Shown: positions 636-26,539, numbered from the stretch's first letter. The stretch is DNA of 29,268 nucleotides from Patescibacteria group bacterium (GCA_038062805.1 JBBTWK010000030.1:1-29268), one strand, 5' to 3'. Notes: generated by a model from the sequence alone, not told the origin. Translations and numbers: made by a program.

Positions 636-891
636 ACGAGATTTTGAGGGGGAGTTTGGCAAAATAGTGGCAACGTATGCTGCCGCTCGTGACCGTACAC
701 TCAGATATTTTTACTGGGATGTTATTCATGGAAGAACACAACCCTTGTCGGAAGCCCACGGTCTTATAGAAGACGAGGTCTGTCATACATATAATCTAAC
801 CGCAGACCAATATCGTCAAGCTCTGGGGAGGTGCATCGCTAATATAGTGGATGTGAAAACGGGTAAAGAGATGTTTGGCCATGGCAGCTAA
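628..891 (+). CDS. Hypothetical protein, 87 aa
   Basis: ORF overlaps both the upstream small ORF and the dnaJ start. No recognised motif. Confidence 0.6.
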
Positions 892-1987
892 AAGAGACTA
901 CTACGAAATACTGGGTGTAAATAAATCGGCCTCGGCGGATGAACTCAAAAAAGCTTACCGACGTTTGGCTGTCCAGCATCACCCGGACCGCGGCGGCAAT
1001 GAAGCCCAGTTTAAGGAAGTAAACGAAGCCTACGAAGTTTTAAAAGATTCTAGCAAACGCCAGCGTTACGACCAGTTTGGCCATGCTGGCGTAGGTAGTA
1101 GCGCCGCCAGCGACGGCGGCCCCTTTGGCGGCTTTGGCGGTCCAGGCCAGGAGTTTCATTTTGATTTTGGCGATCTGGGACTAGGCGATATTTTCAGCAG
1201 TTTTTTTGGTACCTCCCCGGGCGGGGGCCAGCGCCAAAGCCGCGGCCGCGATGTCGAAACCAGTGTAGAAATTAGTTTCGAACAAGCCGTTTTTGGCACC
1301 GAAGTTGATCTGCGCCTGACCCTGGAAGACACCTGCGAGCACTGCAAAGGCACGACCGTCGAACCAGGCCACGAACTGCAAACTTGCGACAACTGCAAAG
1401 GCAGCGGCCAAATCACTAATGTTATGCGGACTGTCTTTGGCAATATCCAGCAAGCTGCGCCGTGCCCAAAATGCAAAGGCAAGGGTAAAATCCCCGAAAA
1501 ACTCTGTAGCGTCTGCGTTGGCAAGGGCACCCAGCGTAAAAACCAGGTAATCAAGCTCAAAATCCCAGCCGGCATCGATGACGGCGCCACCATCCGTCTG
1601 CGCGAGCACGGCGAAGCCATCGCAGCCGGCCCCAAAGGCGATTTATATGTACTTATTCGGGTCAAGCCGCACAAAAAATTCACCCGCGAAGGCGATTTAA
1701 TCCTGTCAGCCGAACATCTTGGTATGGTAGACGCGGCGCTGGGCACCCAAATCAGCGTTGAAACAGTCGACGGTCCAGTCCGTATGAAAATACCCGCCGG
1801 AACCCAAAGCGGCAGCGATTTTAAACTCTCTGGTCACGGCGTGCCCCACATCCAGGGCTCTGGCCGCGGCGCCCACATTGTAACAATCTTAGTAGATACG
1901 CCGACCAAACTCTCCGCCACGCAAAAACAGCTGCTTGAAGATCTAAAAAGTACCGGTAGTAAAGAACACTTTTGGGAGAAACAATGA
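881..1987 (+). CDS. dnaJ: Chaperone DnaJ
   Basis: [10 protein letters not shown]-domain start, HPD motif, G/F-rich region and four CxxCxGxG zinc-finger repeats. ATG 881 is preferred over TTG 875. Confidence 0.98.
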
Positions 1988-3837
1988 CCGAGATACCCAC
2001 AAAGCCGTCGGAGCTTTGGCCCTATGTTGAGCGGCCTGGAGTTAAAGCTAACCAATACGTCGAAGCTCTTTTTTCAGGACCGGAGGTTCATCTAACCGAC
2101 CAAGAAAAAGAAACAATTGGGCAGTTTGCCCAGGGTCTTTTTAATGGTCGTTATTCCAAGGAAATTCGTTGTGATTCAAGCTCAAATCTTGAGCAAATTT
2201 ATCAAACGTCGCCACTCGATGCTCAACAAAGTTTCTACCTTGGTTACTTTAAAACCGAAAAGGGTAAAGAAGCCTTGAGACAACTTGGCATTAGCTCGGC
2301 AGATCAGGCCGCAATAACGCCAGCCCTTGATAATATAGAGGCCATACCTGAGCAGGTAGAAGACCCAACCCGCAAAAAAATCGCCGCCGATAGTCTAAAT
2401 TGGTATAAAGACCAGCTGGCTGAACAGCTAACCCATGACCCGGCCGACGATAATAAATATGAGGACATTCCTCCATTTAAGGTTAACTATGCTCCTGAAA
2501 AACTACTTGATAAGCTAGATGCCCTTCGTGCTTACCGTTTATTTTATAGACAAGTCAGAGGAGCCTTAAAACAGGAAGAAGCTACTAACTTACGCTACGC
2601 TAAAGAAGTTGTACTTGGTATCTATAGAGCACGTATCAATGGTATGGTGGCCGCTATGTACAGAGGGGCATTCGATCTCGCCCAGCAACTCAATAGATCT
2701 CAGAAGGACGAGCAAACTAAAATGCGGCAAAGCCGTCTTGGCAGGACCCTGCCTGTTGTAGCGGCTACATTTTTTCAGGAAAGGGAAAACAGAGTTTTTG
2801 GCATCGAAGAACTAGCCGGCAACTTTGCCCGGCGGCTGGACTTTATACGCAATGGTGCAGCCTGGCAAGACAGCAGTGATTTCTCACCAATTAGCCCGGA
2901 GCTAGCCAAACTGACAGACGAATTATCTCATAAATCCGAGGAACCCAAGACAACGGAAGCCCAAATCCCCCGACAAGTAGTTGAAAAACTGGACAGTATT
3001 AAATGGAGTGCTGGGCAAATGAAGGAACTTGCAGAGGCAGTTTTGACCGAGTGGCAGCTTTTGAGCAATCAGCAAGCCAGCTGGACAGATGTGGAGACGC
3101 GGGACGGCTTTGCAGCTGACGCACGGTGGCAAGTAATAATTACACCTAAAGCAAAAATCATGTCGGTTGACGGCTCAAAACGAACTCTGAAAATACCCGA
3201 AAAATTTGACCGTACTCTTACCCAAGACGCACCTGCCGGCGTATTACCCGTACTGGCGCACGAACTAACCCATTTGCTTCAGTGCGACTACGACTACCAA
3301 GTAGGCCAACTAATACCGTTAGCCAAAATCCAAGGCCGCCGAACTACAACCATGCGAGAGGCCGGAACAATATTCCAAGAGGATAAAATTCAGGCAATGT
3401 TCGACCGCCAGAGGCCGGCTAATGCCCACTACTTACGGGCGCTCCAAGCAAAGCTGTCTGGCGGCAATAGGCTGGAAGTGGCCCGGGCCTTTTACGACTC
3501 CCATATGAGAGATAAAGAGCCTTCACAAGATAAACAAAAAACTGCCAGAGAATTAGCGGCTGATAGAATTCTCCGTTTTTATAATCACGGTGGGCACGAT
3601 TCGTATCCGCTAAATTACCTGGAACAAGAACTTATAGCTCGTAGCTTGTCGCATTTACCGCAGGAAAAGATAGAATCTTTATTGATCGCAGGTGTCAGCT
3701 TTGATCTATCAGATGCAGCACTTTTACACAAAATGGACCTCTTAAATATCCCTGAAAAAATAGACCGGCATCCAGCTGATGAAGTTTGGCGCGTATTCTC
3801 CGAAAAATACTTACCCGACATTTTGGCAAGCAACTAA
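1984..3837 (+). CDS. Putative zinc metallopeptidase, DUF1704/MATCAP-like C-terminal domain
   Basis: VLAHELTH (HExxH), followed by MREAG (cf. the tEEGLA third-ligand motif), then DRILR and NYLE segments in the order seen in DUF1704 proteins. ATGA overlap with the dnaJ stop. Family call made by eye. Confidence 0.55.
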
Positions 3838-3852
3838 AAAACGCGGGATTTT

Positions 3853-4500
3853 CTAAGAATCTCGCTTACGCTTTTCCAGCTCCTCCAGTAGTATTGGTAA
3901 ATTACGTGGATCGATTTCATATTTAAGTATCAAATCACCTATTTGCTCTACAGCTTCCCACTGCTCAGGAGTTTTACTAGCTACTTTTCTTTCACGCTTG
4001 GCTGTATACATAGCAGAGTCTGCTCTTTTAAGAAACTCAGTCGCTTTTTCACCATGGTGTACAACACCGCCAATTGATGCCCCAACCCCATTTTCATCAA
4101 GCGCCAATTGTACGCGCCCTAAAACTATTTGAAGCCCTTCTTCGTTATTAACATCATGAAGTACAACTACAAACTCATCACCAGATAAGCGGATACTATC
4201 ACCATTACGCCCCTCCTGATCATGGCGGGTTTTTTCGTCTAGCACCTGACCGGCTCTTTTAAGGTATATGTCTCCCGCTTCATGGCCCTGAGTGTCGTTT
4301 AATTGTTTAAAATCATCTAAATCTAGCATTAGTAGACCTATTCTTCCAGAACCTTCTTGAATTATCTGGGGCAGATGGTCGGCCAACCAAGCGCGGTTCT
4401 TTAAGCCTGTAAGTTCATCGGTATATATCCGAGGATCTACCTCTATTCTCGGTGGTAGGTTAAACCCTTCAGGCGCAGAAACTGGATTGCCATTCGTCAT
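3853..4500 (-). CDS. Stand-alone GGDEF-domain protein (putative diguanylate cyclase)
   Basis: TDELTGLKNR, LDLDDFKQLNDTQGHEAGD, RLSGDEF, ASIG and ADSAMYTAK. No sensor domain. Confidence 0.92.
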   Translation of the reverse strand: MTNGNPVSAPEGFNLPPRIEVDPRIYTDELTGLKNRAWLADHLPQIIQEGSGRIGLLMLDLDDFKQLNDTQGHEAGDIYLKRAGQVLDEKTRHDQEGRNGDSIRLSGDEFVVVLHDVNNEEGLQIVLGRVQLALDENGVGASIGGVVHHGEKATEFLKRADSAMYTAKRERKVASKTPEQWEAVEQIGDLILKYEIDPRNLPILLEELEKRKRDS

Positions 4501-4552
4501 GGTGTATATTATAGCATAAGAGTTATACTCTTGTCAAAGACGGTTGTGTTTA

Positions 4553-4624
4553 CTTGCCCCGTACCAAAACCTGAGCGAAATAGTCCGCAACCAGATTATG
4601 TAGCTTCAAGTTTTTGGTGTGGGG
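4553..4624. repeat. ~70-nt imperfect palindromic element, copy 1 (family with 20054-20126 and 26464-26539)
   Basis: 59/67 identity by hand alignment to the reverse complement of 20060-20126. The arms CCCCGTACCAAAACCTGA and TCAAGTTTTTGGTGTGGGG pair. Confidence 0.85.
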
Positions 4625-4650
4625 TTAGCTTTAGGATTACAATAACTGTG

Positions 4651-4764
4651 ATGACTTATAAAAATACAAATCAGTCCGGTTTCATCCCCATGATTATCAT
4701 GATTTTGCTTGTCCTGGGGGTAATAATCTGGCTGGCCTACTCCCGTGTCTCCACAGCCCACTAG
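4651..4764 (+). CDS. 37-aa prepilin-like (class III signal peptide-like) micro-protein
   Basis: MTYKNTNQSG|FIPMIIMILLVLGVIIWLAYSRVSTAH: polar leader, GF cleavage-like site and about 18 hydrophobic residues. Lacks Glu at +5. Confidence 0.55.
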   Translation: MTYKNTNQSGFIPMIIMILLVLGVIIWLAYSRVSTAH

Positions 4765-4808
4765 CATAATCCGTAGACAAAAATATAAAAAAGTGATATA
4801 ATAAAGCC

Positions 4809-6140
4809 ATGCCTCAACCCAAAGGCCAGTCTACTATTGGCCGCGTTACCAAAGTCGATTTTCCAAAGCTCGGCATTACCGATGTCCTCGCCAAGGTGGA
4901 CACCGGGGCCGACTCTTCTTCAGTGTGGGCTAGTAACATCAAAGAGCGGGCCGGAAAGCTCTCTTTCACGCTTTTTGCACCGGGTTCCCCGTACCACACG
5001 GGCGGAGTTATAACAACTCGCCATTATCATATCCGTTCGATCAAAAATTCGTTTGGGCAGGCAGAGTTTAGGTATAAAGTCAGCCTCCAAGTAACACTAG
5101 AGAACCGGACGGTAAATGTCAGCTTTACCCTGGCCAACCGTTCCGATAACCGTTTTCCGGTGTTAATTGGACGCCGCACACTGCACGGGCGATTTTTAAT
5201 AGATGTATCCATTGATGATAAAGCCAAATATGAAATTTTGGTAATTCGCTCTGGTGATACTGGTTCGACGAAGGTTTCCGGAAGTTTTTTCAAACATCTG
5301 AAGCAAGAAAATAAAAAACTGAGCTTCAACTTTGTTAATCTCAGTGATTTAGAATTCCTACTTGGTGGCACTGAGCCCCGAGTGCAGATCAGTAGAACAA
5401 AGCAAGATATTGCTGACTTTGACTTGGTATATTTCCGCGTATTTTTAGCCAACTTCGAAATAGGCGCCGCCGCCGCCCAGTACCTGCAGTCTAAAAACGT
5501 GCCGTTTATGGACCGCTCGTTACTTCTGCACCACCAATCTGTCAACAAACTACATCAGTTGCTGTGCCTGCAGAGCATGGGCGTGAAGGTGCCGGAGAGC
5601 ATATTTGTAATGCCAACTAGCCTTCCGGGTTCTTACCAGAGAGCTGTTAAACAACTTGGCTCGCCTTTTGTACTGAAAGATATCCGCGGCAAAAGAGGTC
5701 GCAATCTATTCTTGATCAGCAATAAGGCAGAGTTTGACAAAGTCTGCAAACGAACCAAGGAACAGAACCTGGACATGATTGCCCAGCGATTCATTCCGCA
5801 CGAAGGCCACTATCGCTTGATTGTACTTGGCAAGCGCATAGAGCTGGTTATCTTCATGACGCATAAACTCTCTAGCCCTCGTATGAATAAAAAGGTGACC
5901 AAGGGTCGCTCGGTATTAGGAGATGAACTAGTTTTGCCAGGGGCGATCAGGCAAATGGCCATTACCGCCGCTAGTGTTTCGCAGGTGGAAATCGCCGGTG
6001 TTGATATATTGCAGGACAAAGAAACTGGGCTGTGGTATTGTCTAGAAGTCAACGAAAACCCTCAGCTTGTAACTGGCTCATTCGTCAAGCAAAAAGAAGA
6101 AATTTTGGCAAAGTATTTAATGAAAAAACTAGGTCAATAA
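4809..6140 (+). CDS. Fusion of a RimB-like retropepsin-type aspartic peptidase (ATP-dependent Zn protease family) and a RimK-like ATP-grasp domain
   Basis: N-terminal AKVDTGADSSS and LIGRR motifs. C-terminal FDLVYFR, NKL..L.L...GVKVP, PFVLK, GVDI and LEVNENP. Confidence 0.85.
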   Translation: MPQPKGQSTIGRVTKVDFPKLGITDVLAKVDTGADSSSVWASNIKERAGKLSFTLFAPGSPYHTGGVITTRHYHIRSIKNSFGQAEFRYKVSLQVTLENRTVNVSFTLANRSDNRFPVLIGRRTLHGRFLIDVSIDDKAKYEILVIRSGDTGSTKVSGSFFKHLKQENKKLSFNFVNLSDLEFLLGGTEPRVQISRTKQDIADFDLVYFRVFLANFEIGAAAAQYLQSKNVPFMDRSLLLHHQSVNKLHQLLCLQSMGVKVPESIFVMPTSLPGSYQRAVKQLGSPFVLKDIRGKRGRNLFLISNKAEFDKVCKRTKEQNLDMIAQRFIPHEGHYRLIVLGKRIELVIFMTHKLSSPRMNKKVTKGRSVLGDELVLPGAIRQMAITAASVSQVEIAGVDILQDKETGLWYCLEVNENPQLVTGSFVKQKEEILAKYLMKKLGQ

Positions 6141-6152
6141 CGAGGCATAACA

Positions 6153-7058
6153 ATGAGAATAGTAATTTTATCTAAAGGCCCATCTAATTACACCACTAGG
6201 CGTCTCAAAGAGGTGGCGGTGGCTAAAGGCCATGAACTACGTGTGGTCAACTATGCCAAGTGCTACCTGACTGTAGAAAGAGGCAATCCAGTCGTCTATT
6301 ACAAGGGTGAAAAGCTAACAAATATCGACGCTATTATTCCACGTATTGCCCAAAGCTATACCAAATACGGCTCGGCTGTGGTGCGACAGTTTGAAATGCA
6401 AGGGGTATATACTACCGCTAGCTCGATTGCTATTGTTAGGTCGCGCGATAAACTGCGGGCCTACCAATTGCTGGCCAAGGCTGAGGTAGGAGTACCAAAG
6501 ACAGTCTTTGCCTTGGAGACTGCCGACTTTGACGAAGTTATCGAAGCCGCCGGTGGCGCGCCGGTAATAATTAAAGTGGCCCGTGGTACCCATGGTAATG
6601 GCGTAGTGCTTGCCGAAACCCGCAAAGCCGCCAAAGCTGTAATGCAAGCCTTTTACGTTGAAGGTGTGAGTTTTTTGGTCCAAGAGTTTATTGAAGAATC
6701 AGCCGGCAGCGACATTCGAGCTATTGTAGTTGGTGGCCGAGTGGTGGCCAGTGTTAAGCGTCAAAGCCTGGATGATGATTTCCGTTCAAACACCCACCAA
6801 GGCGGTGTAGGTACAGCCGTAAAACTTACTTCTGAAGAAGAGAAAACAGCCATTCGGGCGGCCAAGGCCATGGGCCTACCTATTTGCGGTGTTGATATGA
6901 TGCGTTCTGACCGAGGTCCGCTGGTGCTCGAAGTTAATTCTTCTGCCAGTCTGAAAACACCCGAAACGGTTACTAAGCGGGATGTCGCGGCACAGATCAT
7001 TGAATACGTTGAGCGTAATGCCAAGGGCAGACACAAAAAAGACCGGGTCGGTGCTTAA
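6153..7058 (+). CDS. rimK: RimK-family alpha-L-glutamate ligase
   Basis: MRIVILS, DAIIPRI, RSRDKL, GTHGNGV, QEFI, DIR, FRSNTHQGG, GVDM and LEVNSS. Confidence 0.95.
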   Translation: MRIVILSKGPSNYTTRRLKEVAVAKGHELRVVNYAKCYLTVERGNPVVYYKGEKLTNIDAIIPRIAQSYTKYGSAVVRQFEMQGVYTTASSIAIVRSRDKLRAYQLLAKAEVGVPKTVFALETADFDEVIEAAGGAPVIIKVARGTHGNGVVLAETRKAAKAVMQAFYVEGVSFLVQEFIEESAGSDIRAIVVGGRVVASVKRQSLDDDFRSNTHQGGVGTAVKLTSEEEKTAIRAAKAMGLPICGVDMMRSDRGPLVLEVNSSASLKTPETVTKRDVAAQIIEYVERNAKGRHKKDRVGA

Positions 7059-7061
7059 AAC

Positions 7062-7098
7062 AATCCCCATTTTCTGACATATGTTTGAAATAGGGGAT
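7062..7098. repeat. Hairpin element with ACATATGT apex, copy 1 (possible terminator after rimK)
   Basis: ATCCCC...GGGGAT arms. The 14-nt core TTCTGACATATGTT is shared with the reverse complement of 12696-12709. Confidence 0.65.
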
Positions 7099-7140
7099 GG
7101 ATTGTTCTCGGTAATAAAACGCTAGTGGTAAAATGACGGT

Positions 7141-7611
7141 ATGGGTGAAATATTGCTAGCCGTCTTAATTTTCGGGCCTCTGGCGCTAACTTTTTTGCTT
7201 AAAAGCAATGCCGCTTTGGGTTTTTTGGTTTTGTGCGCTGGCTTTGTGCTCAGCACCTCTGTTATCGGTGATTTAAAACAGCTGCTCAGCCAGCTTAATT
7301 TATCAACTACCAACAGCACCGTTGGCATTATTCTTTTGACCGTTCCGTTAGTTTTAACCCTGCTGCTAACAAGGGGATCGGCTGGAAAGGGTTTTAAATT
7401 TTGGCTGCAGCTAGGGGCTGCACTTTGCGGGGGCGGCCTACTTGCCCTGTCTGTTGGACCAATCCTAAGTAGTTCATCACAATTTGATGTTACAACTTCT
7501 AGCTTCTGGACCAATTTGCAAAAAATCCAGTCAGAAGTTATCGGCATCGGTGCTTTGATTAGCTTGCTGCTAATCTGGTTCAGCGGTTTCAAGTATCGTA
7601 AACACCACTAA
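7141..7611 (+). CDS. Hypothetical integral membrane protein, 156 aa
   Basis: About five hydrophobic segments. Extended -10 (TGgTAAAAT) lies 6 nt upstream of the ATG. Confidence 0.8.
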   Translation: MGEILLAVLIFGPLALTFLLKSNAALGFLVLCAGFVLSTSVIGDLKQLLSQLNLSTTNSTVGIILLTVPLVLTLLLTRGSAGKGFKFWLQLGAALCGGGLLALSVGPILSSSSQFDVTTSSFWTNLQKIQSEVIGIGALISLLLIWFSGFKYRKHH

Positions 7612-19842: not shown

Positions 19843-20000
19843 TTAAATTTTCTTTCTTACTTAGTTACTTAGGAACGACCCCTTACAGTCTGGTTTTTGA
19901 ACTCAGGCTACAAGCCGAACATTCCAAAGTCACCAAGAACAGATAAGATCCTAACGGCGGTAGTTAAGCACGTTAGTAGTAAAAATACAACATTAAATAC

Positions 20001-20028
20001 TTGACTGTATTCATAAAGCACTTATGAT
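20001..20028 (+). promoter_or_regulatory. Sigma70-type promoter
   Basis: TTGACT-16 nt-TATGAT upstream of repeat copy 2 and the small ORF at 20147. Confidence 0.5.
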
Positions 20029-20053: not shown

Positions 20054-20126
20054 CCCACGCACCAAAAACTTGACGCTCTGTAATCTGATTGCAGACTACT
20101 CCGCTCAGGTTTTGGTACGGGGCAAG
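20054..20126. repeat. ~70-nt imperfect palindromic element, copy 2
   Basis: Reverse complement is 59/67 identical to 4553-4619. Internal TCTGTAATC/GATTGCAGA stem. Confidence 0.85.
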
Positions 20127-20405: not shown

Positions 20406-21611
20406 TTATTCAATCAGGTTTTTAATGGCGTTGATGAAGGCAGCTTCTTTGAGAGATACATTTCGCTCCTGCGCTGTTTTACATAGAGCGTCTACGGCTT
20501 TGATCATATACTGCTCGAGCTGGTTATTAACCTTTTCTTCGGTCCAGTGCTCGCTGGTCCTGTTTTGGATCCACTCCAGGTAACTAACGATCACACCGCC
20601 GGCATTAGCTACGATGTCCGGTAGAATGACAACCCCCTTACTAGTGAGATAGTCAAAGGCCGCTTCGGCAGTAGGGCCGTTAGCCAGTTCTACAACAATC
20701 CTAGCTTTTATATTGCCCATATTACCAGAGTTGACAGCGTCGCCAAGGGCGGCCAGTACCAAAACGTCGACGTCTAGTGCCAGTAATTCATCATTAGTAG
20801 TAACCTGCACACCTTCCTTCTTAAGATCAGAAAAACGGCCGCCGTCTTGCTTGTAGTTACCTAGCTCGGTAGCACTTAAGCCCTCCGGCGAATATACGGC
20901 AGCCTGGGAATCGCTGGCGGCGACTAGCTTCCAGTTTGGACAACTCTCCCCGGCAAGCACAGCAAAGAATGATCCAACATTCCCAAAGCCCTGTACGGCG
21001 TATGTTAATTGTTTGTCGGCCCCGTCCATATGCTCTAGCAACTGCGCAAAGGCAAACATGCCGCCGCGGCCAGTTGCCGCATCACGGCCCAAGCTACCAC
21101 CCTTGTTAACGCTCTTACCTGTAAAACTAGCTTTAGTCGTGTCACCAGTTAGCTTTTCGTATTCGTCTACCATCCAGTCAATAATCTCTGGGTTGGTGTT
21201 AACGTCTGGCGCCGGCACGTCTTTATCCGGCCCAATATGTGGCCGGAGCTGGCGGACGTATTTGCGGCTCAATTCTTCCAGTTCGCCTTCGTCTAGGTCT
21301 TTGGGATTAACGCTAATGCCGCCTTTGGCACCGCCAAGCGGTAGGCCAACAGCCGCGCTCTTAAAACTCATCAAAGTCGCTAACGCCCTTACCTCATCAA
21401 GATCAACTTCTGGGTGGAATCGAATACCCCCCTTGTATGGGCCCAGTTTATTGCTGTGTTGTACGCGGTAAGCACTGAAGGTTTTACCGCTACCAAGTCT
21501 GATTTCAAACAAATGCTCTTTATCAATTTTTATAAGCTCGTTTATGGCCTCGTCGTCTAAACCAAGTTTTTTGCCGGCTCGCGAGATTAGGCCACGGGCG
21601 GTAGTAAGCAT
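20406..21611 (-). CDS. gdhA: Glu/Leu/Phe/Val dehydrogenase (glutamate dehydrogenase)
   Basis: GPYKGGIRFHP, GGAKGG, DVPAPD, GRDAATGRG, QGFGNVG, ELANGP and PD..ANAGGVIVSYLEW. Confidence 0.95.
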   Translation of the reverse strand: MLTTARGLISRAGKKLGLDDEAINELIKIDKEHLFEIRLGSGKTFSAYRVQHSNKLGPYKGGIRFHPEVDLDEVRALATLMSFKSAAVGLPLGGAKGGISVNPKDLDEGELEELSRKYVRQLRPHIGPDKDVPAPDVNTNPEIIDWMVDEYEKLTGDTTKASFTGKSVNKGGSLGRDAATGRGGMFAFAQLLEHMDGADKQLTYAVQGFGNVGSFFAVLAGESCPNWKLVAASDSQAAVYSPEGLSATELGNYKQDGGRFSDLKKEGVQVTTNDELLALDVDVLVLAALGDAVNSGNMGNIKARIVVELANGPTAEAAFDYLTSKGVVILPDIVANAGGVIVSYLEWIQNRTSEHWTEEKVNNQLEQYMIKAVDALCKTAQERNVSLKEAAFINAIKNLIE

Positions 21612-22703: not shown

Positions 22704-24581
22704 ATGGATAATAACAAAAAGCAGTTTCGCCTCGGTGGTGGTGGAAGTGGCAGCGAAAAAAGTAGCCGCTTTAAAAACTTTGGCTTTGCAACATTACTGA
22801 TATTATTTGGCCTGGTAATTTATGCGGCCTTTAACCAGCCCAGCCAATTAAAAGAAGTACCCTTTTCTCAGGTAGTCAACGATGCCAATTCCGGTAAATT
22901 AGCTAAAATCACCATTAAGGGTAACCAGTTGGATGTTACGCCTTTAGGTGCAGCCAAGCCAACCGAAAAATCCTTCAAGGAAGAAGGCTCTACAATTTAC
23001 CAGCAGGGGTTGCAGCAAGGGAAGGTAGAGATTGTTAATAAGCCTAGTTCTAGCGGCGGAAACATTTGGATGCAGCTGGCTGTTAATATCTTGCCGATAG
23101 TAGTTATAGCGGCAATTTTGATTTTTATGTTTCGTAGCGCTCAAGGCCAAGGCAACCAGGCTCTATCTTTTGGTAAAAGCCGGGCCAGGCTTTATGGTAA
23201 CGAGAAAGATAAAATTACCTTTGCCGATGTCGCCGGCAACGACGAATCCAAACAAGACCTCCAAGAGGTTGTCGAGTTTTTGAAGTTCCCGAAGAAATTC
23301 GAAGGCGTAGGAGCCAAAATTCCCAAAGGCGTACTGCTGGTCGGGCCGCCGGGCACCGGTAAAACTTTATTAGCCCGGGCTGTGGCTGGTGAGGCTAATG
23401 CCCCGTTCTTTAGTATTAGCGGCTCAGAATTTGTGGAGATGTTTGTGGGTGTCGGTGCCAGCCGTGTACGTGACTTGTTCGCCAAAGCTAAGAAAAATGC
23501 TCCATGCATCATCTTTATAGATGAAATAGACGCCGTAGGCCGCCGCCGGGGATCCGGTATGGGTGGTGGGCACGACGAGCGCGAGCAGACACTTAACCAA
23601 ATCCTGGTCGAGATGGACGGTTTTGAGCAGGGCGTGAATGTTATTGTCTTGGCGGCCACCAACCGCAGCGACGTGCTCGATCCAGCGCTACTGCGGCCCG
23701 GCCGTTTTGACCGCCGTGTCAACATCGACCTGCCTGACCGTCCCGACCGAAAATTAATTTTGGAAACCCACTTTAAAGAAAAACCGGTCAGCAAAGATGT
23801 CGACCTGGATGCCCTGGCGGCTAAAACGGCCGGCTCATCTGGGGCGGACCTGGCCAACATCGCTAACGAAGCAGCCATTTTGGCAGCCCGGCACAACCGC
23901 AAGGTGATTGAAAACGAAGACGTGGTCCAGGCCTTTGAAAAAGTCGCCCTCGGCCCGGAACGCAAGAGTAAGATTTTGAGTGACAAAGAAAAAGAATTGA
24001 CGGCTTATCATGAGGCCGGACATGCGGTAGTTGGTCATGTATTGCCGGATAGCGACATGGTGCATAAGGTGACCATTATTCCACGTGGTGCGACCGGCGG
24101 TGTGACTTGGTTTATTCCACCCGAAGACAAAAGCTACCACAGCATTATTGAGTTTTAAGATGTGTTAGCGCGAATGCTGGGCGGCCGGGTAGCCGAAGAG
24201 TTTGTTTATGGGCCGGACCGTGTAACCACCGGTGCTGGCTCGGACTTGCAAAAAGCTGCCGAGCTGGCTCGCGACATGATTGTTAACCAAGGTATGGGCA
24301 AAGGCCTGCGCGATCAAGTCTTTCACACCGATGATGGCATGATGTTCGAAAAAATGATGCACGAGCGCCAGTATTCCGACGAAACAGCCAAGCTTATTGA
24401 TGACGAAGTCGAGCACCTGATAACTGAGGCCGGCCAACGTGCTCGTGAAGTACTGAAAGTTAATATGCCAAAACTCGAGCAACTCAAAGTGGCGCTACTA
24501 GAAAAAGAGACTGTCGAAGCCGAAGAAGTCCTGAAGATCCTTGAAGGTTCGGTCATGCCCCGCGAAGCTGCTCTATACTGA
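22704..24581 (+). pseudogene. ftsH: ATP-dependent zinc metalloprotease FtsH interrupted by one in-frame TAA (24156-24158); true nonsense allele or sequence error
   Basis: Two TMs, Walker A GPPGTGKT, Walker B IFIDEID, SRH RPGRFDR and HEAGH. ORFs 22704-24158 and 24162-24581 share a frame and read ...SIIEF*DVLARMLGGRVAEE...GAGSDL. Confidence 0.9.
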
Positions 24582-26463: not shown

Positions 26464-26539
26464 TGCCCCGCACTAAATCCTGAAGCAAGAAGAGAGGGAA
26501 TACCTCTATTTCGAGTCTTCAAGACTATAGTGCCGGGGC
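26464..26539. repeat. ~70-nt palindromic element, diverged copy 3
   Basis: Left arm TGCCCCGCACTAAATCCTGA is 17/20 identical to copy 1. Right arm TTCAAG...GTGCCGGGG. Confidence 0.6.

Follow-up and report, generated by a model that had tools for sequence, protein, structure and literature searches.

In Pseudomonas, the alpha-L-glutamate ligase RimK polyglutamylates the ribosomal protein S6 (RpsF), the protease RimB removes the polyglutamate, and RimK itself binds cyclic di-GMP (c-di-GMP) with a Kd of ~1 µM and is stimulated by it (PMC7343187). RimA, an EAL phosphodiesterase, is the further member of this RimABK system (Little 2016; Grenga 2020). In the eukaryotic tubulin-tail cycle, ATP-grasp ligases of the TTL/TTLL type stand opposite gluzincin metallopeptidases, the MATCAP/TMCP enzymes (KIAA0895L/KIAA0895), which cleave off C-terminal Tyr and Glu and make polyglutamate chains shorter (PMC10499314). 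A third point of comparison is given by the bacterial DUF1704/"QEGLA motif" proteins and the Pseudomonas rlo operon (rloABC: retropepsin RloA, 7TM-transglutaminase RloB, and ATP-grasp RloC), which has a secreted peptidase and a role distinct from that of RimBK. Here, we describe a locus that combines relatives of these enzymes. It lies in a stretch of 29,268 nucleotides (nt), hereafter the window, which is the whole of contig C30 (JBBTWK010000030.1) of a 699-kb, 101-contig, 91%-complete Patescibacteria genome (GCA_038062805.1), and it encodes a canonical RimK, a RimB-like retropepsin fused to a second ATP-grasp ligase, a 617-amino-acid (aa) HExxH metallopeptidase, and, on the opposite strand, a GGDEF-domain protein (Table 1). 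We consider it probable that this locus is a RimK-centered module in a groundwater genome of the Saccharimonadales type, that it would add and trim alpha-glutamate tails, and that the GGDEF gene was placed beside it by inheritance.

How does the locus compare with the described systems? As in Pseudomonas RimABK, a rimB-like gene adjoins a canonical rimK, the RimB part is a DTG retropepsin, and a gene of c-di-GMP metabolism lies next door. On the other hand, no EAL/RimA was found in the genome and a divergent GGDEF cyclase is present instead, RimB is fused to a second ATP-grasp, there is an extra metallopeptidase of the MATCAP fold, the genome's own S6 ends in ...RIRE, and the link to c-di-GMP is without phyletic or neighborhood support outside the order. 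With the tubulin-tail cycle, the locus shares the pairing of an ATP-grasp ligase with a putative MATCAP-fold gluzincin, and the catalytic Glu and third-ligand Glu (E-x-G) of the 617-aa protein align with those of human MATCAP; it differs from that cycle in the HExxH motif, an additional N-terminal helical region of ~330 aa, the lack of a PF08014 match, and a substrate that is not tubulin. With rloABC and the DUF1704 proteins, it shares a peptidase accompanied by a RimK-related ATP-grasp, and a distant relative of the 617-aa gene adjoins an ATP-grasp::RimB-like fusion and a 7TM_transglut gene; unlike rloABC, the window has no 7TM-transglutaminase gene, its ligase is a canonical RimK, and reading the sequences by eye revealed no obvious signal peptide in the RimB domain or in the 617-aa protein. 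The second, RimB-fused ligase and the candidate second eraser of the MATCAP fold are new variant features of the RimBK module. Our literature search, beyond which many subscription journals lay, found no paper linking MATCAP/DUF1704 with RimK/ATP-grasp ligases and none on RimK in Saccharibacteria.

An initial annotation of this DNA had read the locus as a writer/eraser system for peptide tags under c-di-GMP control. The genes that it named are present at or near the places it assigned to them, and the divergent orientation of the GGDEF gene was borne out. Furthermore, the stretch was found in groundwater metagenomes of at least two studies, and all the gene junctions of the locus are bridged by contigs assembled independently from other samples, including the second study: one of 4,013 nt spans positions 3253–7254, and shorter ones span the dnaJ/peptidase, peptidase/GGDEF, and intergenic/fusion joints. 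Therefore, the gene arrangement is not an assembly artifact. None of the RNA runs checked for the stretch contains it.

RimK matches PF08443 (6e-57, 192.8 bits), PF18030 (2e-36, 124.8 bits), and TIGR00768 (243.6 bits; cut-off 143.4), and it scores 310 bits against the equivalog model NF007764, just under the cut-off of 331. In the fusion protein, the retropepsin part matches PF05618 (1.9e-13, 50.9 bits; cut-off 27) and has D-T-G-A at aa 31–34; its score against NF052261 (2.7e-15, 56.5 bits) is far under the equivalog cut-off of 200, and we therefore call it RimB-like, not a certified RimB equivalog. The ATP-grasp part is divergent (PF08443 1.2e-13; TIGR00768 3e-24) and retains the Mg-binding D...E-x-N. 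RimB and RimK were found together in 38 of 41 genomes of the order, in which the pair is nearly universal. A second ATP-grasp is often adjacent or fused; the RimB::ATP-grasp fusion itself recurs in G016, G040, and L028, and elsewhere the two are separate adjacent genes.

What is the 617-aa protein, which had been labeled DUF1704/MATCAP-like? It has no Pfam or NCBIfam match, including PF08014 even at E 10; a PF08014 search of the whole genome returned no match either, and a profile search of PDB sequences yielded nothing useful. The protein has an HExxH motif followed downstream by a Glu in an R-E-x-G motif, and residues H430, E431, H434, E463, E470, and Y487, invariant in 22 aligned homologs, make up the pattern of a predicted gluzincin. 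In AFDB, its confident AlphaFold2 model (pLDDT 89) matched several models of DUF1704 proteins (E 4e-5 to 1e-3), among which one bears the annotation of a fusion with an "alpha-L-glutamate ligase-related" ATP-grasp. Among 48,161 PDB representatives, the top match was human MATCAP (7z5g; Z 9.4, root-mean-square deviation 4.6, 272 residues), with a Z that, by the structure-search tool's own warning, counts as middling for helical proteins, and the next matches were DUF885 and M32 carboxypeptidases. A Foldseek search of the PDB gave weak ACE, M3, M32, and DUF885 rows, which fit a helical gluzincin and are not decisive.

Because the Z was middling for a helical protein, the relation was tested by sequence profiles. 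Aligned with hhalign to the eight neighboring PF08014 proteins of relatives' loci, all of which carry HExxxH, the 617-aa family gave a probability of 90.9% (E 1.2e-6, 205 columns), with its HExxH placed on the HExxxH and E463 on the Glu of the EEG motif. The protein misses two defining features of PF08014, namely the hidden Markov model match and the HExxxH spacing; it is a divergent MATCAP/DUF1704 relative at the superfamily level and, by PF08014 criteria, not a member of that family. The label is therefore right at the superfamily level, by fold and by hhalign, and does not extend to Pfam or NCBIfam membership; among the other domain matches that had been anticipated, PF00990, PF08443, and PF05618 were all recovered. 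The family comprises ~419 clusters (representatives at 50% identity), nearly all of ~600 aa, and homologs bear the source names "Candidatus Saccharimonadales bacterium" and "Patescibacteria group bacterium". It is rare among species representatives and was recovered only via metagenome protein collections; a single-protein search of 40 relatives gave 0 matches.

Does the peptidase keep company with the ligases elsewhere? Eight informative contexts of the 617-aa family were analyzed, with members at 35–51% identity or less, and in seven of them RimK-like and RimB-like genes lie within a few kb. Three of these seven (L067, L118, and L120) are without dnaJ directly upstream, and in L067 the family gene runs 4 nt into the ATP-grasp gene that follows it. 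In the eighth context (L068), a canonical MATCAP gene directly follows the family gene. We also examined a phylum sample of 300 genomes, unselected by the analyst, for which the tallies are given over 301. The family profile matched in eight of the sampled genomes, five of which also have a RimK-like gene; the two genes are at most 3.5 kb apart in four of the five, and two of those four (G060/G088) represent a different family-level lineage. Canonical MATCAP (PF08014) is present in 58 of the 301 genomes and co-occurs with a RimK-like gene in 40, against 18 expected if the two were independent; in 22 of these 40, across many families, its distance to a RimK-like ATP-grasp is no more than 3.5 kb. 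Furthermore, G098 (L121:1311-3695) and G299 (L122:3000-5399) encode ATPgrasp_ST::MATCAP fusions of ~795 aa.

Within the order, canonical MATCAP occupies the slot upstream of the ligases in G021, G026, G022, G009, and G036. No RimB match was found in the MATCAP-bearing clusters of G021, G026, and G009, in which MATCAP lies upstream of AG2-RimK; two erasers may therefore replace each other, which suggests that RimB and MATCAP peptidases are interchangeable. The association of peptidase and ligase across the phylum is well supported, and we conclude that the association between ligases and MATCAP-type peptidases is functional, with the enzyme roles being predictions from sequence. The writer/eraser part of the initial annotation thus stands on the near-universal RimB–RimK pair and on MATCAP types that recur beside RimK-like ligases, sometimes fused to them; as for conservation of the neighborhood, it was found for the peptidase with RimK-like genes and not, beyond the order, for GGDEF with rimK.

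In the module that we favor, RimK and the RimB-fused second ATP-grasp would add alpha-linked glutamates to a protein C-terminus, the RimB retropepsin domain would cut the poly-Glu tails internally, and the 617-aa MATCAP-fold enzyme would trim C-terminal residues as a metallocarboxypeptidase. These proposed roles agree with the biochemistry published for RimK, RimB, and the MATCAP/TMCP enzymes. c-di-GMP may stimulate RimK as in Pseudomonas, and the comparative data do not require that it does.

Two side observations concern the MATCAP-type genes. The ATPgrasp_ST::MATCAP fusions adjoin PKD+7TM_transglut membrane proteins, an arrangement that resembles Pseudomonas rloABC with MATCAP replacing the retropepsin. 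At L118:3398-6583 and L123:1147-3344, a MATCAP-type gene lies directly 3' of mreB and faces RimK-like ligase genes; this adjacency may be lineage synteny or may hint at the actin-like MreB as a target.

Table 1. Positions of the locus genes, their control and repeat elements, and other features of the window.
Feature	Position	Strand	Remarks
dnaJ	875–1987	+	Pfam DnaJ, DnaJ_C, DnaJ_CXXCXGXG; last gene of the dnaK-dnaJ chaperone block
617-aa metallopeptidase, MATCAP/DUF1704 fold	1984–3837	+	HELTH motif; candidate carboxypeptidase "eraser"
Sensorless GGDEF-domain protein, 215 aa	3853–4500	−	PF00990 3e-28, 99 bits; SGDEF motif
Sigma-70 promoter of the GGDEF gene	4508–4537	−	12/12 consensus; −10 box ends 7 nt before the ATG
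Palindromic repeat element, ~67 nt	4553–4619	+	Long hairpin; leader of the 37-aa peptide gene; from alignment
37-aa single-pass hydrophobic membrane peptide	4651–4764	+	Core G-F-I-P-M-I-I-M ... L-A-Y-x-R-V-S
Promoter of the fusion gene	4774–4802	+	11/12 consensus; 6 nt upstream of the ATG
RimB-like retropepsin::ATP-grasp fusion	4809–6140	+	aa 7–135 retropepsin; aa ~170–421 RimK-family ATP-grasp
Canonical RimK alpha-L-glutamate ligase	6153–7058	+	PF08443, PF18030 (Rimk_N), TIGR00768
156-aa multi-pass membrane protein	7141–7611	+	No Pfam match; directly 3' of rimK in most genomes of the order
37-aa hydrophobic micro-ORF	19908–20021	−	Preceded by the second palindromic copy
Palindromic element, second copy	20060–20126	−	Reverse complement
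gdhA	20406–21611	−	13 kb from the cluster
ftsH	22704–24581		In-frame TAA at 24159–24161
Palindromic element, further copy	~26464–26539		

Which protein would carry the tails? The C-terminus of S6 was compared across 30 genomes of the order. Of the 28 RimK-bearing relatives, 22 have Glu as the last residue, mostly as -EE or -EEE, and the two relatives without a RimK match (G002 and G038) have Ser and Ala. These endings make S6 the most likely usual acceptor of RimK in the order. In the S6 tails of the order (L005, L074–L102), a conserved Lys/Ala-rich helix leads into an acidic tail; in the genus of the window and a few others, the acidic run is followed by a basic extension, P-R-R-S-R-I. In this genome, S6 terminates in ...EDDDEDDEPELERPRRSRIRE (...RRSRIRE), with a single terminal Glu preceded by a basic residue; the Glu-Glu ending that had been anticipated is thus found in most relatives and not here. 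In E. coli, RimK needs a penultimate Glu on S6. Because of the basic extension with its single Glu, the acceptor in this genome is uncertain, and the true substrate could be another protein, or free glutamate or free poly-Glu.

The GGDEF protein has ~25 residues before its domain and a tail of ~45 aa, and no sensory or dimerizing N-terminal domain or other domain was found in it. In its SGDEF motif, the first Gly is replaced by Ser. SGDEF variants can be active cyclases. Alignment with solved cyclases shows the metal-binding D-x-D Asp, the N-D, the guanine-contacting G-D, and the Lys/Arg in place, and the protein is probably an active diguanylate cyclase. Its slot orthologs carry GGDEF, HGDEF, SGDEF, GGDEI, or GGDEL. 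An RxxD (R-N-G-D) upstream of the SGDEF was considered as an inhibitory I-site and rejected, as it is not conserved in orthologs.

No second GGDEF gene was found in the 91%-complete genome, and searches of the same genome for EAL, PilZ, and HD-GYP found none. The c-di-GMP (GEMM) riboswitch models RF01051 and RF01786 also gave no match, and the RF01051 result is weak, since control genomes were silent too. RimK is therefore among the few known c-di-GMP-binding families present. MshEN domains, whose fold is known to serve as a c-di-GMP receptor, are present in two PilB-like proteins of the genome; both retain the 24-residue c-di-GMP motif only partly, and these pilus ATPases may be alternative receptors. 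When RimK was co-folded with the GGDEF protein, the score was 0.00, which counts neither for nor against binding.

Could the GGDEF gene be a working part of the module? By tblastn over the 41 loci, the arrangement of the order consists of dnaK-dnaJ, a variable slot, the 37-aa peptide, an optional second ATP-grasp, rimB, rimK, the 156-aa membrane protein, and, later, comEC-yebC. The slot between dnaJ and rimB (loci L025–L066) is a hotspot of variable genes: a GATase/peptidase-C26-like gene (~190 aa, on the rimBK strand; 14 loci), a methyltransferase (~200 aa, opposite strand; 10 loci), an ATP-grasp_4/L-amino-acid-ligase type (~410 aa; 5 loci), a family of ~620 aa without a Pfam match (opposite strand; 4 loci), other TTL-like or RimK-like ATP-grasps, and MATCAP genes. 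The ~620-aa family was tried as a further MATCAP relative and found to be unrelated (hhalign probability 0.1%); it serves as a control for the 90.9% reached by the 617-aa family. The GGDEF gene is itself an optional occupant of the slot, always directly after dnaJ and on the opposite strand.

It is conceivable that the lone cyclase is integral to the module and that c-di-GMP binds RimK or the second ligase and sets the balance of glutamylation and trimming, so that the locus would be the counterpart, in a minimal genome, of Pseudomonas RimABK, and a cyclase would stand where RimABK has the phosphodiesterase RimA. The GGDEF gene divergently adjoins the fusion and rimK, with strong promoters back to back; RimK belongs to the few known c-di-GMP-binding families of this genome, and its Pseudomonas counterpart binds and is stimulated by the messenger (PMC7343187). 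Furthermore, GGDEF lies at most 4 kb from rimBK in ~13 of 21 GGDEF-bearing relatives, and a second close arrangement exists in G103, in which GGDEF lies on the other side of rimBK and still adjoins the cluster. On the other hand, the adjacency is limited to the order, in which synteny extends over the entire dnaK...yebC block. Beyond the order, GGDEF and RimK-like genes lie within 10 kb of each other in 2 of 31 genomes, G313 (2.5 kb, a close arrangement that favors coupling) and G247 (8 kb), and in the sister-class genome G288, which keeps the dnaJ-slot-rimB-rimK order, GGDEF is 509 kb distant. Of the 301 genomes tallied for the phylum, 114 have GGDEF (a tally that counts the unpublished genome G194, on which no specific claim depends), 95 have RimK-like genes, and 34 have both, when 36 would be expected by chance. 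About half of the RimK-bearing relatives are without a GGDEF match, and G226, G258, and G330, all in the order, show the reverse, with GGDEF and no RimK match. The slot GGDEFs diverge fast (24–42% identity vs. 51–90% for RimK) and do not conserve the RxxD, and in the literature we found no mapped c-di-GMP site on RimK. Taken across these genomes, the placement of GGDEF is probably an order-wide inherited gene order, which makes it a neighbor by inheritance. The coupling to c-di-GMP put forward in the initial annotation is a reasonable hypothesis that lacks comparative support and that we think rather unlikely, as we do the counterpart of RimABK sketched above; for this locus, a RimABK-type c-di-GMP system is unproven.

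Several points weigh against our preferred reading of a protein-tail module. The 617-aa protein has HExxH, not HExxxH, and fails the Pfam model; the genome's own S6 may be a poor RimK acceptor; the peptidase gene is translationally coupled to dnaJ and could therefore serve chaperone-linked proteolysis; and much of the co-location within the order stems from one inherited gene order, so that the relatives are not independent observations. The S6 ending that lacks Glu-Glu would fit a pathway in which the RimK-family ligases join Glu, or other amino acids, to give free oligo- or poly-alpha-glutamate that could be stored, act as an osmolyte, or form part of the envelope, and in which RimB and the MATCAP-like enzyme degrade the product. 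Such a pathway would also suit the many ATP-grasp ligases, the GATase/C26-like gene (14 loci), and the methyltransferases in the slot of relatives, the pairing of ATP-grasp::MATCAP with 7TM-transglutaminase elsewhere in the phylum, as in the Pseudomonas rlo operon, and the 37-aa membrane peptide and 156-aa membrane protein that flank the genes and may provide an envelope link. The RimK is nevertheless close to the S6-modifying type (310 bits against NF007764), -EE/-EEE tails on S6 are the rule in RimK-bearing relatives, and the RimB domain and the 617-aa protein show, by eye, no obvious signal peptide; we judge a free product unlikely. The coupling to dnaJ leads to a different proposal, in which the genes are mere neighbors, the 617-aa peptidase being a quality-control protease of the hrcA-grpE-dnaK-dnaJ heat-shock set and GGDEF signaling elsewhere, e.g., to type IV pilus ATPases. 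The ATG of the peptidase gene at 1984, preceded by a GGGAGA Shine-Dalgarno sequence, overlaps the dnaJ stop codon (TGA, 1985–1987) in an ATGA (1984–1987), dnaJ lies directly upstream of the family gene in four other contexts, and the two PilB-like MshEN proteins offer a target for the cyclase. Against this stand the three contexts that keep RimK-like and RimB-like neighbors without dnaJ directly upstream, the phylum-wide association and fusions of MATCAP with ATP-grasp, and the merely partial c-di-GMP motif in MshEN, and we regard this proposal as very unlikely.

The GGDEF gene and the divergent fusion gene are separated by a 308-bp intergenic region, in which their two near-consensus promoters (4537–4508 on the minus strand and 4774–4802 on the plus strand) stand back to back. 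Because the −10 boxes end 6–7 nt before the ATGs, the mRNAs of both genes would be leaderless or nearly so. The 37-aa peptide encoded in between is conserved upstream of rimB in ~20 of 41 related loci by tblastn. The palindromic element in its leader forms a hairpin (fold z-score −3.3) and has further copies in the window; at 4549 and 4614, exactly at the element's ends, the contigs of other samples break off, as a multi-copy repeat would cause. Apart from tRNAs, an Rfam scan of the window gave no match. The second copy of the element precedes another 37-aa hydrophobic micro-ORF. Downstream of rimK, a DUF192 gene separates it from the gene of the 156-aa membrane protein in some relatives. The gdhA gene, which had been suggested as a supplier of glutamate, is separated from the cluster by unrelated genes, and nothing links it to the module. 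Farther along the window, one in-frame TAA splits ftsH. The first piece, with the AAA domain and the N-terminal portion of the M41 peptidase, ends at 24158, and the remainder of M41 resumes in the same frame from 24162; the gene may be a pseudogene, the stop may be a sequencing error, or it may be read through.

What would these enzymes mean for such small bacteria? Work on RimK/RimB glutamylation of a ribosomal tail has so far dealt almost exclusively with Pseudomonas and E. coli; here, RimBK is near-universal in one order of ultra-small, host-dependent bacteria, inside a hotspot of ATP-grasp and peptidase genes. One can picture the single SGDEF cyclase with RimK and the fused ligase as a one-input, one-output c-di-GMP circuit in which glutamylation of ribosomal or other protein tails is the sole output and two erasers of different mechanism, an aspartic endopeptidase and a MATCAP-type carboxypeptidase, reset it. 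We hold this to be unlikely; if it is true, the tubulin-tail code would have a bacterial forerunner under second-messenger control, in a genome of ~0.7 Mb. The attractive story of a lone cyclase beside a c-di-GMP effector rests here on inherited gene order only. On the other hand, the pairing and fusion of MATCAP with RimK across Patescibacteria parallel the TTL/TTLL–MATCAP tubulin-tail cycle of eukaryotes, and they offer a testable function, C-terminal Glu trimming, for an unannotated family of ~400 clusters and for bacterial DUF1704 proteins. The most valuable result is therefore the phylum-wide pairing of ligases with MATCAP-type peptidases rather than c-di-GMP.

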